From a virus (taxonomy: Duplodnaviria; Heunggongvirae; Uroviricota; Caudoviricetes), in the IMG/VR virus record IMGVR_UViG_2684622769_000003: a stretch of DNA of 15,513 nt, one strand, 5' to 3'. The notes below the pieces were generated by a model, which ran no database searches, was not told the origin of the DNA, and saw only the letters and a list, made by a program, of their open reading frames with translations. This document shows, one piece after another, positions 1,297 through 15,513 of the stretch; within the stretch, counting starts at the first letter, position 1; each line of letters begins with the position of its first letter. The translations under genes and the position numbers were made by a program.

Positions 1297-3848
1297 CGTC
1301 CACCTCCGGAGAACAGGCCACCATCACGCATCTGTGTCTGAATTTCATCACGGGCACCCTTGCGGGCCATGTCATACACGGCCTTCATCATCTGTGGACC
1401 TGGCAGACCATTCGTACCGTCGTTCTGAATCACCACGTGATTGTTCTGATTAAAATTAATGCCTTCAGCCCGCCGCATCTGCGCCGGACTTCCGGCACCG
1501 CCCACATAACCACCTTCCGCATAGCCGCGCATCAGCCGGTAGAGATTCCCCACGCCAATCCGGCTGGTTGCCTCCTTCGTGANNNNNNNNNNNNNNNNNN
1601 NNNNNNNNNNNNNNNNNNNNNNNNNNNNNNNNNNNNNNNNNNNNNNNNNNNNNNNNNNNNNNNNNNNNNNNNNNNNNNNNNNNNNNNNNNNNNNNNNNNN
1701 NNNNNNNNNNNNNNNNNNNNNNNNNNNNNNNNNNNNNNNNNNNNNNNNNNNNNNNNNNNNNNNNNNNNNNNNNNNNNNNNNNNNNNNNNNNNNNNNNNNN
1801 NNNNNNNNNNNNNNNNNNNNNNNNNNNNNNNNNNNNNNCAGCATCGCCGCCATATTCTGTGCAATACCATCAAAGGTCTGCGTGGCTGCACTTTTAACCT
1901 GTGACATACTGTCCGTGGCGCTCTCTTCCCACTCACTCCAGCCGGACTTCAGGCCTGCCATCCAGCTCCCGCGAAGCTGGTCTTCAGCCGCCCAGGTCTT
2001 TTTCTGCTCTGACATGACGTTATTCAGCGCCAGAGGATTATCGCCATACTGTTCCTTCAGGCGCTGTTCCGTGGCTTCCCGCGCTGCCTGCCGGTCAGTC
2101 AGCCCCCGGTTTTTCGCATCAATGGCTGCCCGTTTTGCCCGTTGCTGCTGTGCGAATTTATCCGCCTGCTGCGCCAGCGCATTCAGGTGCTCCTGATACG
2201 TAACCTTGTCACCAAGTGCAGCCAGCTGGCGTTTGTACTCCAGCGTCTCGTCTTTATGCGCCAGCAGGGATTTCTCCTGTGCGGACAGCTGGCGACGTTG
2301 TGCCGCCTCCTCCAGTACCGCGAACTGACTTTCTGCCTTCCACAAATCCCGGCGCTGCTGGCTGATTTTCTCATTCGCTCCGGCATGCTTCTCCAGCGTC
2401 CGGAGTTCTGCCTGAAGCGTCAGCAGGGCCGCATGAGCACTGTCTTCCTGACGATCGCCCGCATACACCTTCACGCCGGACTGTTTCGGCTTTTTCAGCG
2501 TCGCTTCATAATCCTTTTTCGCCGCCGCCATCAGCGTGTTGTAATCTGCCTGCAGGATTTTTCCGTCTTTCAGTGCCTTGTTCAGTTCTTCCTGACGGGC
2601 GGTATATTTCTCCAGCGGCGTCTGCAGCCGTTCGTAAGCCTTCTGCGCCTCTTCGGTATATTTCAGCCGTGACGCTTCGGTATCGCTCTGCTGCTGCGCA
2701 TTTTTGTCCTGTTGACGCTGTTGATCTACCCTCTTTTGGGCTGCATCCCGCTCCAGGCGTTTTTTTTCACGATCATCCCAGTAACGCGCCCGTGCTTCAT
2801 CGTTAACGAAATAATCATCCTTGCGCAGATTCCAGATGTCGTCTGCTTTCTTAAACGCAGCCTCTGCCTTAATCAGCATCTCCTGCGCGGTATCAGGACG
2901 ACCAATATCCAGCACCGCATCCCACATGGATTTGAATGCACGTGCAGTCCTGTCTGCCCAGGTCTCCAGCGTGCCCATGTTCTCTTTCAGGCGGCGGGTC
3001 TGGTCATCAAACCCTTTCGTTGCGGCCTCGTTCGCCGCCTGCAATGCCCCGGCTTCATCGCCGGAACGCTGCAACTGAGCAACATACGCAATCTGCTCCG
3101 CCGTCACGTTATGGAACTGGCGTGCCATCGCCGTCAGCCCCGACGTCGGGTCTGTGGTCAGCTTCCCGAAGGCTTCAGCGACCTTGTCCACCTCCACGCC
3201 GGATGCATAGGAGAAACGCGCCACACTCTGGCTGATGGACGCAATCTGAGCCTCACCGCTTACCCCCGCCTTAACCAGTGCGCTGAGTGACTCGCTGGTC
3301 TGGTTAAACGTCAGCCCTGCCGCCTGCCCGGCTCTGGACAGGACCAGCATACGATCTGCCGTCAGTCCCGCCTGATTACCGGAAAGGACCAGCGTTTTGT
3401 TGAAATCGGACAGGGTTGAGTTGCCCTGATACCAGGCATACGCCAGCGCACCGGTCGCCACCGCCAGCGAGGTGGCCCCCACCATCGGCAGGGTGATCGC
3501 GCCGGCAAGCCCCCTGAACATGGGGATCATCCCGCCGAAGGAGTCCTTAACCTGACCACCCTGTTGCAGCAGGATCAGCCAGGGATTCTGCCCCCCTGCA
3601 AGCTGCGTGGCCACGTCGGTGAACTGTGCAGGCAGCATACGCATGGCGGCTTTATACTGCCCGACGGAAATCCCCGCTTTCTGTGCAGCCAGCGCCTGTC
3701 GGCTCAGCGACTGTTCAACGACTGCCGCTGTTTTTTTCGCATCACTTTCCGTACCGGAAAAATGACGCCTGACTCTGGCCATCTGCTCGTCAAATCTGGC
3801 CGCATCCAGACTCAAATCAACGACCAGATCGCCTACCGGTTCAGCCAT
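1293..3848 (-). CDS. H: Tail tape measure protein H, interrupted by an N-run
   Basis: ORF track 1293..3848, 851 codons including X positions; N- and C-terminal parts match lambda gpH (MAEPVGDLVVDLSLDAARFDEQ... / ...KAVYDMARKGARDEIQTQMRDGGLFSGGGR); coiled-coil-like Q/A/K/E-rich middle; the frame is consistent across the 256-nt gap. Confidence 0.92.
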   Translation of the reverse strand: MAEPVGDLVVDLSLDAARFDEQMARVRRHFSGTESDAKKTAAVVEQSLSRQALAAQKAGISVGQYKAAMRMLPAQFTDVATQLAGGQNPWLILLQQGGQVKDSFGGMIPMFRGLAGAITLPMVGATSLAVATGALAYAWYQGNSTLSDFNKTLVLSGNQAGLTADRMLVLSRAGQAAGLTFNQTSESLSALVKAGVSGEAQIASISQSVARFSYASGVEVDKVAEAFGKLTTDPTSGLTAMARQFHNVTAEQIAYVAQLQRSGDEAGALQAANEAATKGFDDQTRRLKENMGTLETWADRTARAFKSMWDAVLDIGRPDTAQEMLIKAEAAFKKADDIWNLRKDDYFVNDEARARYWDDREKKRLERDAAQKRVDQQRQQDKNAQQQSDTEASRLKYTEEAQKAYERLQTPLEKYTARQEELNKALKDGKILQADYNTLMAAAKKDYEATLKKPKQSGVKVYAGDRQEDSAHAALLTLQAELRTLEKHAGANEKISQQRRDLWKAESQFAVLEEAAQRRQLSAQEKSLLAHKDETLEYKRQLAALGDKVTYQEHLNALAQQADKFAQQQRAKRAAIDAKNRGLTDRQAAREATEQRLKEQYGDNPLALNNVMSEQKKTWAAEDQLRGSWMAGLKSGWSEWEESATDSMSQVKSAATQTFDGIAQNMAAMLXXXXXXXXXXXXXXXXXXXXXXXXXXXXXXXXXXXXXXXXXXXXXXXXXXXXXXXXXXXXXXXXXXXXXXXXXXXXXXXXXXXXXXTKEATSRIGVGNLYRLMRGYAEGGYVGGAGSPAQMRRAEGINFNQNNHVVIQNDGTNGLPGPQMMKAVYDMARKGARDEIQTQMRDGGLFSGGGR
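1583..1838. other. Run of 256 N (unsequenced or masked) inside H
   Basis: Literal n characters in the sequence. Confidence 1.
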
Positions 3849-4281
3849 ACCGGACTCCTCCTGCGATCCCTTCTGATACTGTCATCAGCATTACGTCATC
3901 CTCCGTCATGTCCGCCACATCCGGGGAAGCGGGGATAACTTCATTCCCGTCCGGGCCAAAGCGGACACCTCCGGCAAGCCCTGCCGCTTTCTGCATCAGC
4001 ACATCATCTTCAGGCTCTTCGTCAGCCTCGCGCCGGTTCAGCAGACTGAAATCCAGCGGATGCATCTCCGGATCGCTGAAAAACAGGCTGAGCACGGTGT
4101 ACGTCAGCCCGGAAAAGTGCATATCCAGCAGAACATCATGAAAATAATGGGTACTGTAAAAGCGGTGCCAGTCGGCATACTCCGTGGATGACATCCCGGC
4201 AAGCATGGCGCGCCAGTCGGGTCGCCCCATCTCACGCGCCAGTTTCAGGGCAAAACTCAGCTCACCGTCGAACACTTTCCC
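3841..4281 (-). CDS. T: T reading frame: C-terminal extension of the gpG-T fusion, reached by a -1 programmed frameshift near the end of G
   Basis: ORF track 3841..4275 (-1 frame relative to G), translation matches the lambda T segment of gpGT; ends 5 nt before the H start; slippery heptamer lies at the G/T junction. Confidence 0.85.
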   Translation of the reverse strand, partial: GKVFDGELSFALKLAREMGRPDWRAMLAGMSSTEYADWHRFYSTHYFHDVLLDMHFSGLTYTVLSLFFSDPEMHPLDFSLLNRREADEEPEDDVLMQKAAGLAGGVRFGPDGNEVIPASPDVADMTEDDVMLMTVSEGIAGGVRYG

Positions 4282-4679
4282 GCAGAAACAGGCTCTGCAG
4301 GCCCGGCGTCCTCTGCCTGTTCAGGAGCATCATTCACCACAAACTCATACATACCGGACAGCCGGTACACCACGTTTTCAGCATGAGAAATTGCCTCTGT
4401 GGGCCAGGTGGTAAGCACTTCCTGCTCAATCTGTTTAACGGCTTCATTCATGGACGGCATCTGCGTCTTCTTCGGATGGTTATGCCACAGGGACATCGCA
4501 ACCACAAAAGCGCCGGTTCTGATGGCGTCTTCCACAGTAAACTTCCGGTTGCTGTCTGACTCCGCCTGTTCTGCCTGCCGTTTCATCAGGTCGAGATGCT
4601 CAATACGCTGCAGGGCTGACAGTTCAGAAAGCGTGACGGTCACACCGTTATGTTCAAATGATTCGGTTTTCAGGAACAT
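4257..4679 (-). CDS. G: Tail assembly chaperone G
   Basis: ORF track 4257..4679, 140 aa, matches lambda gpG (MFLKTESFEHNGVTVTLSELSALQRIEHL...); ATG at 4679..4677. Confidence 0.93.
   Translation of the reverse strand: MFLKTESFEHNGVTVTLSELSALQRIEHLDLMKRQAEQAESDSNRKFTVEDAIRTGAFVVAMSLWHNHPKKTQMPSMNEAVKQIEQEVLTTWPTEAISHAENVVYRLSGMYEFVVNDAPEQAEDAGPAEPVSAGKCSTVS
4275..4281 (-). promoter_or_regulatory. -1 programmed ribosomal frameshift slippery heptamer G GGA AAG (plus strand reads ctttccc)
   Basis: Heptamer read directly at 4275..4281, positioned at the last codons of G (..AGK..) where the T frame becomes open; this is the known lambda G-T frameshift mechanism. Confidence 0.8.
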
Positions 4680-4694
4680 CGCTGACTCTCCGGA

Positions 4695-5435
4695 TTAACT
4701 GGCGGTGACGTTGATTTCTGCAACCGCAGCAAACTCACCATTACCAGATACGACCGGAATGTTGACCTTGCCTGCAGCAACACCTTTCACGGTGATGGTC
4801 ATACCACTGACCGACACGGTGGCTTTTGTTTTATCCGCAGACACCGCACGGAAGCTCTTGTCGGTTGCGCCATCCGGCTGGAATGCCACGGTCAGCGTGG
4901 TGCTCTGCCCTTTCACTACGGAAGCACTGGCGGGTGTCACCGTCATGCCGGTCGTCGCCGTCACCGTGCTGCGATCTTCTGCCATCGACGGACGTCCCAC
5001 ATTGGTGACCTTCACCGTGCGGGTAATCACCTCCTTCGCCGTCACCGCCTTACCGATACTGCTGACCCAGCCACGGAACACATCGACCGTGCCGTTCGGG
5101 AAGCGGATTTTATAGGCACGGGTATCACCTTCATTAAACCACGCCAGCAGCGCCTGCTGCCCCTGCTCTCCGGGCATCCACGCCAGCGTGAAGCTGGTAT
5201 CTCCGGCAGATTTCTGCCCCTGCCCGGTCGCAGTCCAGTCTGCATCTTCATCATCGAGATAGCTGTCGTCATAGGACTCAGCGGTCAGTTCGCCGGGCGT
5301 CAGGTCTTTAACTTTTGCCAGACGCGACCAGTCAACGTCTGAAAGCGGGTTCGCATAAGGGTCACCGCTCCCCTTATAAACCCACAGGGTGGTCCCGGCA
5401 CCTTTCACCGGCATTGTAGGATTTGGTACAGGCAT
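4695..5435 (-). CDS. V: Major tail tube protein V
   Basis: ORF track 4695..5465; the lambda-type start [22 protein letters not shown] is the ATG at 5435..5433, giving 246 aa as in lambda gpV; C-terminal Ig-like region present. Confidence 0.93.
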
Positions 5436-8652: not shown

Positions 8653-9160
8653 TTACACTGGTGTGTTCAGCAAATCGTTAACGGCATCAGATGCCGGGTT
8701 ACCTGCAGCCAGCGGTGCCGGTGCCCCCTGCATCAGACGATCCAGCGCAGTGTCACTGCGCGTCTGTGCACTCTGTGGTGCTGCGNNNNNNNNNNNNNNN
8801 NNNNNNNNNNNNNNNNNNNNNNNNNNNNNNNNNNNNNNNNNNNNNNNNNNNNNNNNNNNNNNNNNNNNNNNNNNNNNNNNNNNNNNNNNNNNNNNNNNNN
8901 NNNNNNNNNNNNNNNNNNNNNNNNNNNNNNNNNNNNNNNNNNNNNNNNNNNNNNNNNNNNNNNNNNNNNNNNNNNNNNNNNNNNNNNNNNNNNNNNNNNN
9001 NNNNNNNNNNNNNNNNNNNNNNNNNNNNNNNNNNNNNNNNNNNNNNNNNNNNNNNNNNNNNNNNNNNNNNNNNNGCAGCCTCGGTATCCAGCACAGCCTG
9101 CACGGACAGGCCGGTATATGCCGACACCTTCTGTGCAAACATCCGGCGGGTTGCATCCAT
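8653..9160 (-). CDS. nu3: Scaffolding protein Nu3, translated from an internal in-frame start within C; interrupted by the same N-run
   Basis: An ATG at 9160..9158 is in the C frame at C residue 239 (MDATRRMFAQKVSAYTGLSVQAVLDTEA...), where the lambda Nu3 start falls; shares the C stop at 8653. Confidence 0.75.
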
Positions 9161-9874: not shown

Positions 9875-13620
<3,746 letters not shown>

Positions 13621-13646
<26 letters not shown>

Positions 13647-14166
13647 TCAGCAACCCCGGTATCAGTTCATCCAGCGCGGCTGCTTTGTTCATGGCTTTGA
13701 TGATATCCCGTTTCAGGAAATCAACATGTCGGTTTTCCAGTTCCGGAAAACGCCGCTGCACCGACAGGGGGATCCCGTCGAGAATACTGGCAATTTCACC
13801 TGCGATCCGCGACAGCACGAAAGTACAGAATGCGGTTTCCACCACTTCAGCGGAGTCTCTGGCATTTTTCAGCTCCTGTGCGTCGGCCTGCGCACGCGTA
13901 AGTCGATGGCGTTCGTACTCAATAGTCCCTGGCTGGAGATCTGTCTCGCTGGCCTGCCGCAGTTCTTCAACTTCCCGGCGCAGCTTTTCGTTCTCAATTT
14001 CAGCATCCCTTTCGGCATACCATCTTATAACGGCGGCAGAGTCATAAAGCACCTCATTACCCTTGCCACCGCCTCGCAGAACGGGCATTCCCTGTTCCTG
14101 CCAGTTCTGAATGGTACGGATACTCGCACCGAAAATGTCAGCCAGCTGCTTTTTGTTGACTTCCAT
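13621..14166 (-). CDS. nu1: Terminase small subunit Nu1
   Basis: ORF track 13621..14166, 181 aa (MEVNKKQLADIFGASIRTIQNWQEQGMPVLRGGGKGNEV...), matches lambda gpNu1 with an N-terminal winged-HTH; ATG at 14166..14164. Confidence 0.95.
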
Positions 14167-14343
14167 TGTTCATTCCACGGACAAAAACAGAGAAAGGAAA
14201 CGACAGAGGCCAAAAAGCCCGTTTTCAGCACCTGTCGTTTCCTTTCTTTTCAGGGGGTGTTTTAAATAAAAACATTAGGTTACGGCGAAGAAGAACGGAA
14301 ACGCCTTAAACCGGAAAATTGTCATAAATAGCGAAAACCCGCG
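14167..14343 (-). other. cosB-like terminase binding region with three R-element repeats
   Basis: A perfect 16-bp inverted pair, agaaaggaaacgacag at 14191..14206 and ctgtcgtttcctttct at 14232..14247, plus a third related copy (aacggaaacgcc) near 14292..14303. These sit between the Nu1 start and cosN, as the gpNu1 R sites do in lambda. Confidence 0.75.
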
Positions 14344-14355
14344 CGCCTTCCGCCC
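14344..14355 (-). other. cosN-equivalent 12-mer (cohesive-end position); reads GGGCGGAAGGCG on the minus strand, not the canonical lambda 12-mer
   Basis: Flanked by ...ACAGGTTACG upstream and CGCGGGTTTTCGC... downstream in phage orientation, both as in lambda; the 12 nt between them were read directly. Confidence 0.7.
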
Positions 14356-14391
14356 CGTAACCTGTCGGATCGCCGGAAAGGACCCGCAAAA

Positions 14392-14406
14392 TGATAATAA
14401 TTATCA
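14392..14406. promoter_or_regulatory. Perfect 7-1-7 palindrome TGATAATAATTATCA, identical to the Fur-box core consensus; function unproven
   Basis: Read directly; part of a 17-bp perfect palindrome atgataataattatcat at 14391..14407, about 36 bp outside cosN and about 150 bp upstream of the plus-strand RHH gene. Confidence 0.3.
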
Positions 14407-14554
14407 TCTACATGTCACAACGTGCATCTACGCCATCAAACCACGTCAAATAATCAATTATGACGCAGGTATCGTATTAATTGATCTGCATCAACTTAAC
14501 GTAAAAACAACTTCAGACAATACAAATCAGCGACACTGAATACAGGGCAACCTC

Positions 14555-14788
14555 ATGTCAACGAAGAACAGAACCCGCAGAACAACAACCCGCAACATCC
14601 GCTTTCCTAACCAAATGATTGAACAAATTAACATCGCTCTTGTTCAAAAAGGGTCCGGGAATTTCTCAGCCTGGGTCATTGAAGCCTGCCGCCGGAGACT
14701 GTGCTCAGAAAAAAGAGTTTCGCCTGAAGCAAACAAAGAAAAGAGTGACATTACTGAATTGCTCAGAAAACAGGTTAGACCAGATTGA
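14555..14788 (+). CDS. Small ribbon-helix-helix-like DNA-binding protein, YnfO/YlcI-like (DUF3950-type prophage protein)
   Basis: ORF track 14555..14788, 77 aa (MSTKNRTRRTTTRNIRFPNQMIEQINIALVQKGSGNFSAWVIEACRRRL...); basic N-terminal tail, then a beta-strand plus two helices typical of RHH; opposite strand to the late operon. Confidence 0.7.
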   Translation: MSTKNRTRRTTTRNIRFPNQMIEQINIALVQKGSGNFSAWVIEACRRRLCSEKRVSPEANKEKSDITELLRKQVRPD

Positions 14789-14845
14789 AGCAATTTAGAT
14801 AATCGTGCAGACTACGCCCCCTCATATCACATGGAAGGTACTACA

Positions 14846-15256
14846 ATGGCTCAGGTTGCCATTTTTAAACAAATATTCGATAAAGTGCGAAATAATTTAA
14901 ACTATCACTGGTTTTATTCTGAACTAAAACGTCACAATGTCTCACATTACATTTACTATTTAGCCACAGAGAATATTCATCTTGTTCTTGAAAACGATAA
15001 TACGGTTTTAATAAAAGGACAGGGTAAGGTTGTAAATGTAAGATTTTCAAAAAATAAATGCCTTATAGAAGCCACCTTAAAAGGATTCAAATCAGGAGAG
15101 TTATCATTTTACGAATACAGGAAAAATCTTGCTACAGCAGGGGTTTTCAGATGGATTACAAATATCCACGAAAACAAAAGGTATTACTATACCTTTGATA
15201 ATTCATTACTCTTTACTGAGAACATACAGAACACTACACAAATATTTCCGCACTAA
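14846..15256 (+). CDS. YdfO/YbcV-like prophage protein (DUF1398 family), function unknown
   Basis: ORF track 14831..15256; I prefer the second ATG at 14846 ([43 protein letters not shown]...), which has GGAAGG 6-12 nt upstream, giving 136 aa; visibly AT-rich compared with the structural genes. Confidence 0.75.
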
Positions 15257-15264
15257 ATCATAAC

Positions 15265-15293
15265 GTCCGGTTTCTTCCGTGCCAGAACCGGAC
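15265..15293 (+). other. Hairpin-forming inverted repeat just after the YdfO-like stop (8-bp stem gtccggtt / aaccggac, 13-nt loop)
   Basis: Read directly; no U-tract follows, so it is not a canonical intrinsic terminator. Confidence 0.3.
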
Positions 15294-15301
15294 TCGCTGG
15301 C

Positions 15302-15511
15302 ATGATGAAATATGTGTACCCGGTAACCCCGGTGTGCATCGTTTTTGATTATTCCCGCACACTCGCGCAGAAGGAGTTCCCCGTCGGGCTACGGTCTCTG
15401 TTAATACGGGAATACGGCGACGATTGGATTTGCCCCTATATTTCCAGACATCTGTTATCACTTAACCCATTACAAGCCCGCTGCCGCAGATATTCCCGTG
15501 GCGAGCGATAA
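15302..15511 (+). CDS. Hypothetical small protein (69 aa), unassigned
   Basis: ORF track 15302..15511 (MMKYVYPVTPVCIVFDYSRTLAQKEFPVGLRSLLIREYGDDWICPYISRHL...), complete with stop TAA at 15509..15511; no family recognised and no clear RBS checked. Confidence 0.25.
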   Translation: MMKYVYPVTPVCIVFDYSRTLAQKEFPVGLRSLLIREYGDDWICPYISRHLLSLNPLQARCRRYSRGER

Positions 15512-15513
15512 CC

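Follow-up and report, generated by a model that had tools for sequence, protein, structure and literature searches.

The palindrome beside cosQ in a lambda-like phage genome matches a published Escherichia coli Fur site and frequently accompanies lambda-type cos

We analysed a 15,513-nucleotide stretch of viral DNA (IMG/VR record IMGVR_UViG_2684622769_000003; the window), which runs from the tail genes of a lambda-like phage or prophage toward its right end. Judged by alignment, the palindrome next to its cos site is identical to the nohB/nohD Fur site of prophage DLP12 and closely resembles the nohA site of Qin; as a Fur site, this element is already known and not new. Several independent published experiments on identical or homologous copies indicate that Fur very probably binds it. 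Among phages with a lambda-type cos, the box is an optional yet widely conserved companion of that site. The full explanation that we favour, in which the palindrome is a genuine high-affinity Fur operator cluster gating transcription at the boundary between right end and cos, stands at about an even balance of probability; transcriptional gating, taken by itself as the function of the box, is tentative and falls somewhat short of even.

The palindrome is an inverted repeat of the form 8-1-8, ATGATAAT-A-ATTATCAT, at 14391..14407. In a palindrome of odd length the central base has no pairing partner, so the "perfect 17-bp palindrome" described in a preceding sequence-only reading consists of two arms of eight. 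That reading had also placed an exact 7-1-7 Fur-box core inside it, and the match was confirmed: the 15-mer TGATAATAATTATCA at 14392..14406, read within the stretch aaTGATAATAATTATCAtc, has the form TGATAAT-A-ATTATCA, agrees with TGATAAT-n-ATTATCA at 14/14 specified positions and is the same in the DLP12 and phage 434 copies. When the 7-1-7 pattern TGATAATNATTATCA was searched with up to 2 mismatches, this was the single match in the whole window against 0.03 expected, and 6 of 200 shuffled sequences gave any match. The classical 19-bp Fur box GATAATGATAATCATTATC was matched at 16/19 positions (3 mismatches) at 14387..14405, the sole match in the window, and none of the 200 shuffles produced one. 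In 1.17 Mb of related phage loci we found 48 perfect 7-1-7 matches, all 48 of them cos-adjacent. The shuffles, together with the cos-adjacency of every perfect match, exclude a chance origin of the palindrome.

The cos elements of the window were placed by aligning 14160..14560 to the Qin and DLP12 cos regions and the phage 434 right end, and the lambda right end was also compared. The 12-nt cohesive-end segment of cosN, a variant reading GGGCGGAAGGCG, was located at 14344..14355 by alignment with lambda, Qin and DLP12. On the minus strand, cosQ (AGGACCC, or GGGTCCT as read on that strand) occupies 14379..14385, the same place at which the phage 434 record annotates it, and the cosB/I2 region, whose role is assigned from the cos literature, fills 14167..14343 between cosN and the Nu1 start, as aligned with the K-12 prophage cos regions. 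The genes for the terminase small subunit Nu1, a NohA/NohD homologue (13621..14166), and for the terminase large subunit (11721..13646) lie on the same strand, as do the head and tail genes, of which the window carries a full set. On the plus strand are a gene for a YlcI/YnfO-family RHH small protein (14555..14788; Pfam DUF3950, E=2e-20; NCBIfam YlcI_YnfO_N) and a YbcV/YdfO-family gene (14831..15256; Pfam DUF1398, E=3e-43), which is probably co-transcribed with it. The palindrome starts 36 nt past the cosN overhang and 6 nt past cosQ and ends 148 nt before the RHH start codon (14555), in agreement with the earlier estimates of about 36 bp to cosN and about 150 bp to the RHH gene. From the box centre at 14399 to the Nu1 ATG at 14166 the distance is 233 nt. 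An Rfam search of 13500..15513 returned nothing relevant.

Two minor features of the window were recorded along with these elements. In the minus-strand reading, its cohesive end differs from that of lambda, GGGCGGCGACCT, at overhang positions 7, 8, 9, 10 and 12, and another IMG/VR locus (L038) carries the same variant. Positions 7-12 of the cohesive end are published as varying freely among lambda-like phages, and the window variant fits this. In the regions of the tape-measure, C/Nu3 and portal genes, ORFs look split because of masked N runs at 1583..1838 (256 nt), 8786..9074 (289 nt) and 10583..10888 (306 nt), respectively; a frameshift in the portal gene was considered and rejected, its apparent split being due to a masked run instead.

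Alignment revealed that the window from 14387 through the RHH start is identical to the nohD-ylcI intergenic region of DLP12 and to phage 434, and that Qin and lambda carry a slightly different variant, GTGATAATGATTATCAT. The DLP12 nohB/nohD site has the same position relative to cosQ, cosN and the Nu1 homologue as the site in the window. The two differ in one base immediately after cosQ (14386, G versus A) and in the cohesive-end sequence, and DLP12 is a decayed prophage, whereas the window retains its structural genes. The Qin nohA site and the lambda box likewise occupy the homologous position with a perfect 7-1-7 core, but their central base is G instead of A, and a G outside the left arm makes the minus-strand -10 read TATCAC, lacking the final T of TATCAT in the window. 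In Qin, as in the window, 233 nt separate the box centre from the Nu1/NohA start codon, which equals the published "nohA -233". The lambda copy, TGATAATGATTATCA at 48452..48466, is 6 nt from cosQ (48473..48479), and the earlier statement that lambda has a near-identical palindrome at the same place was correct. About three quarters of complete E. coli genomes contain the cos-box region, with up to nine copies per genome. Across the window, DLP12 and phage 434, the spacer at 14408..14554 is itself invariant (essentially 100% identity), and Qin and lambda come close to this.

Copies of this site have been linked to Fur by several methods. Chen et al. (2007, PMC2189734), using a model built from footprinted sites, scored the DLP12 nohB cluster, which has the identical sequence, at 25.3 bits, placing it in the third row of their Table 4 of strong clusters and counting 4 sites in 28 bp; as the source of the nohB Fur site they cite Stojiljkovic et al. 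1994, a Fur titration study. Through its identity with DLP12, the window element thus has a high model score with overlapping sites 6 bp apart. The nohA cluster of Qin scored 22.3 bits at -233, with a second overlapping site 6 bp further out; it was recovered by in vivo selection (Vassinova and Kozyrev 2000, as cited in PMC2189734), and Chen et al. (2007) observed a gel shift with 150 nM Fur in their own assay (PMC2189734). Among the loci that Myers et al. (2013) list as Fur-bound is "nohA", with a ChIP-seq summit at 1634625, the site centre being 1634624; the immunoprecipitation was done with an anti-FNR antibody, and it is the authors who interpret the signal as Fur.

For CFT073, Gao et al. 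(2023, PMC10164565) give in their supplement a Fur ChIP-exo peak, P53, at 1424699-1424711, found in the iron-replete condition only. We found that this peak overlaps the box CGAGAATAATTATCA at 1424694..1424708, which belongs to a phage-21-like prophage and is 5 nt away from its cosQ. Like the box of the window, it is near cosQ and beside a terminase small-subunit gene, but its core, CGAGAAT-A-ATTATCA, has 2 mismatches against the perfect core of the window, and its right flank holds a small secreted protein gene in place of YlcI/YnfO. The MG1655 and BL21(DE3) ChIP-exo peak lists contain no peak at the DLP12, Qin or DE3 boxes (PMC10164565), which may reflect multi-mapping of two or more near-identical copies. 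Identification of the palindrome as a Fur box is supported by the identical DLP12 and near-identical Qin copies, which are published Fur sites, and by the CFT073 peak. The accompanying statement that its role had not been assigned holds for the phage records and the cos literature searched, but not for the E. coli Fur literature on nohA and nohB. In the records of phages 21, 434, phi80 and lambda and in the cos literature searched, the box is neither annotated nor discussed, and in the phi80 record it falls within a feature labelled "cosQ; aka R4 region". A phage element ranks among the strongest Fur sites predicted in E. coli, and in lambda it lies 6 bp from the packaging-termination signal.

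We then surveyed lambda-type cos sites in IMG/VR with a pattern of cosN-left, 21 N and cosQ; the query does not contain the box and is hence unbiased. The scan gave 123 matches, of which 84 had a 7-1-7 core at 0-3 mismatches within 40 nt past cosQ and 38 had 6-9 mismatches; the one match with 4 mismatches was a chance cos match with no terminase nearby. Mismatch counts were therefore bimodal (0-3 or 6-9), with no decaying intermediates. As a negative control, the same scan of genome contigs returned chance matches only, in G+C-rich genomes, none of them followed by a Fur box. When the IMG/VR matches were clustered by the sequence lying past the box, 47 groups emerged, and the box was present in 26 of the 41 terminase-linked lineages and absent from 15, the other groups being chance matches or satellites. 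In all 26 box-bearing lineages, including lambda, 434, 21, phi80 and N15, it started 3-7 nt past cosQ, and the box-less lineages had no displaced box within 1.5 kb. These results bear out the earlier suggestion of a conserved right-end element: the position relative to cosN and cosQ is fixed, and the element is not present in all phages of this cos/terminase type.

The box was kept where Nu1 shares only 38-57% and gpA 66-69% identity with those of the window (box-bearing lineages overall span 38-100% and 66-100%), and it was missing from five lineages whose Nu1 and gpA match the window proteins at 98-99% identity. Two viable phages from a phage collection, 4A7 and 2B8, also lack it. Like cosQ, cosN, I2 and cosB (with its IHF site I1) in lambda-like phages, the box is a physical component of the conserved core of cos, and it resembles I1 in being a host-protein site; unlike those subsites, it is neither universal nor required for viability.

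Counted from the box start, columns -3 to +21 were highly conserved across the 26 diverged cos lineages, and beyond +22 conservation fell to noise. In the window this corresponds to a block at 14389..14413, AAA-YGATAAT-R-ATTATCA-wTTrCA, which consists of the core and a flanking hexamer on each side. The pattern reads as the classical 19-bp box plus a further hexamer, as would be expected for overlapping Fur dimers. Because mismatch counts are bimodal and the block has sharp edges amid unrelated flanks, we consider it to be under purifying selection.

The genes and signals around the box vary from lineage to lineage. RHH (YlcI/YnfO) homologues adjoin the box in only about 4 of the 26 box-bearing lineages. 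In one lineage (L009), Rz and endolysin genes pointing toward cos directly precede it; in N15 it overlaps the stop codon of gene 59, and in phi80 it lies between a gp59-like gene and cosQ, so that in all three the box-adjacent gene points toward cos. The spacer between cos and the RHH gene of the window contains a single promoter-like site, a sigma-70-like match (10/12) on the minus strand at 14391..14418, with a -35 GTGACA at 14418..14413, a 16-nt spacer and a -10 TATCAT at 14396..14391. It points toward cosQ, cosN and Nu1, and the Fur box covers its spacer and -10. On the plus strand, a simple scan from the box to the RHH gene detected no promoter-like site. A promoter over the box is not conserved among the lineages: one toward Nu1 was found in 8/25 and one away from cos in 4/25, and CFT073 has no promoter match over its box.

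The phi80 record names a 76-aa ORF at 44960..45190 (1961..2191 of IMG/VR locus L247) a "putative Fur-regulated protein". Apart from the cos-adjacent box, no Fur box lies within 3 kb of this ORF, and the protein matches no NCBIfam family.

From these observations, gating of transcription would operate as follows. When iron is sufficient, Fe2+-Fur dimers would occupy about 25 bp (14389..14413), beginning 3 nt past cosQ. The effect that we infer to be most likely is repression by bound Fur of transcription that starts in the boundary or passes through it. In the window the candidate target would be the promoter-like GTGACA-16-TATCAT reading toward cosQ, cosN and Nu1, and the divergent YlcI/YnfO-YbcV accessory genes may also be repressed.

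Published expression data from fur mutants differ among strains. In the CFT073 fur deletion, log2 values against wild type were +2.33 for C_RS07340, +2.95 for C_RS26755 and +2.13 for C_RS07370; the authors assigned peak P53 to two transcription units, whose members belong to the Fur regulon of that strain (PMC10164565). C_RS07370 is the fifth gene of the CFT073 terminase operon. The other unit, TU53 (C_RS07340, C_RS26755), we infer to be a divergent unit of small ORFs, because the sizeable ORFs in the interval from the box to C_RS29640 are all directed away from cos; one of these encodes a signal-peptide protein. General induction of the prophage in the fur mutant could also account for the CFT073 rise. 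In the MG1655 fur deletion, nohD, nohQ, ydfO and ybcV were unchanged and almost silent, and in that of W3110, ybcV, ybcW, ylcI, nohD, ynfO and ydfO fell 4-40 fold together with appY (PMC10164565). The W3110 drop is the reverse of derepression, unlike the result in MG1655. A copper-stress study likewise lends no support to Fur derepression of ybcV, which was down-regulated there.

Several of these results count against the explanation that we favour, namely that no promoter is conserved with the box, that the genes were unchanged in MG1655 and down in W3110 upon fur deletion, that the MG1655 and BL21(DE3) lists have no peak at the DLP12, Qin or DE3 boxes, and that the CFT073 rise could come from general prophage induction. 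Transcription alone also leaves the constant spacing of 3-7 nt from cosQ unexplained. If Fur only gates transcription, the box amounts to the familiar situation of a prophage connected to a host regulon. What remains of interest is that a top-affinity Fur site is paired so tightly and so widely with cosQ.

This pairing is one argument for an alternative in which the box is an optional host-factor subsite of cos and Fur acts in cis on DNA packaging. Bound Fur might, for example, pause the terminase motor just before cosQ and cosN or affect how the right chromosome end is handled, with termination coupled to Fur occupancy. The invariable location of the box just past cosQ in 26 lineages, from which it is never displaced, agrees with such a role, as do the facts that cos/terS is its sole constant neighbour, that no promoter is conserved, and that in N15, phi80 and the L009 lineage the gene next to the box is directed toward cos. 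IHF at cosB sets a precedent in the cos literature for a host factor at cos. One cos insert from the Feiss laboratory (lambda 48446-182) includes the box, so work with it cannot separate the contribution of the box. On the other hand, lineages with 99%-identical Nu1 and gpA, like phages 4A7 and 2B8, do without it; because viable phages have lost the box, any packaging role is not essential. The spacing also varies by 4 nt, which gives no fixed helical phase. Saturation mutagenesis by Wieczorek and Feiss in 2001 reportedly limited cosQ to 7 bp, which counts against packaging as well. A literature search for links of Fur to cos, terminase or lambda growth found nothing and gave no fur phenotype for lambda, the key cosQ papers being outside its reach. 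We regard a packaging role as unlikely, and its more specific form, in which lambda-type cos has an optional fourth subsite in the Fur box and packaging termination is tuned by host iron status, as quite unlikely. If such a role were true, a textbook packaging system would gain an iron input and a second host factor; the idea is testable with existing lambda genetics.

It is distinctly improbable that the rightward accessory operon (YlcI/YnfO-YbcV in the window) is the sole target, so that the box would be the iron switch of a moron and its proximity to cos an accident of module boundaries. The 5-8 fold rise of TU53 in the CFT073 fur deletion (PMC10164565) and the RHH-DUF1398 pair 148 nt downstream of the box in the window are consistent with this explanation. 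Many box-bearing lineages, however, have no gene running away from cos and only Rz/endolysin or gp59 running toward it, and the window has no plus-strand promoter-like site between the box and the RHH gene. The K-12 data argue against it too, since ydfO and ybcV were unchanged in MG1655 and ynfO, ydfO, ylcI and ybcV fell in W3110.

Another possibility is that Fur binds without consequence for the phage, the box serving as a decoy or as a titration site, or being a relic that travels with the cos module. The lack of any expression change in the MG1655 fur deletion would fit, and the nohB site, credited as it is to a Fur titration study, is able to titrate Fur when on a plasmid; the region is also repeated up to 9 times per E. 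coli genome. But bimodal mismatch counts and a sharp-edged conserved block point to purifying selection, and we consider an inconsequential site very unlikely.

The remaining readings, that the palindrome is an operator of the RHH protein (YlcI/YnfO), a hairpin or terminator, or a chance match, are extremely improbable and effectively excluded by the rare RHH co-occurrence, the weak fold and the shuffle statistics. Inverted repeats are indeed targets of RHH proteins, and no rightward ORF is closer than the RHH gene, but the suggestion in the sequence-only reading that another dimeric regulator might be involved is not supported for this neighbouring protein, whose gene accompanies so few of the boxes. 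Minus-strand RNA from the palindrome could form an 8-bp A-U stem followed by UUUU; the hairpin is nevertheless weak (-3.3 kcal/mol as DNA) and not significant (z = -1.6), its stem is A-T only, no intrinsic terminator was called at the box, and box variants do not covary to keep pairing.

Several observations were made at related loci. Lambda contains, at 48140..48345 on the minus strand (L244), a YlcI/YnfO-like ORF beside cos that is unannotated in the lambda RefSeq record; its start is conserved, and a homologue is annotated in the DE3 prophage of BL21(DE3). In CFT073, a "TonB family protein" gene at 1423654..1423980 (L252, 2155..2481) lies about 0.7 kb from the cos-adjacent Fur box, so that this prophage carries an iron-uptake-related accessory gene close to a Fur site. 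A different arrangement was seen at 4160..4760 of locus L013, and also in L052 and L054, where two inverted cosQ-cosN copies lie about 560-775 bp apart beside capsid genes. In these elements, which may be capsid-forming satellites, a G+C-rich intrinsic terminator abuts cosQ in the place of the Fur box.
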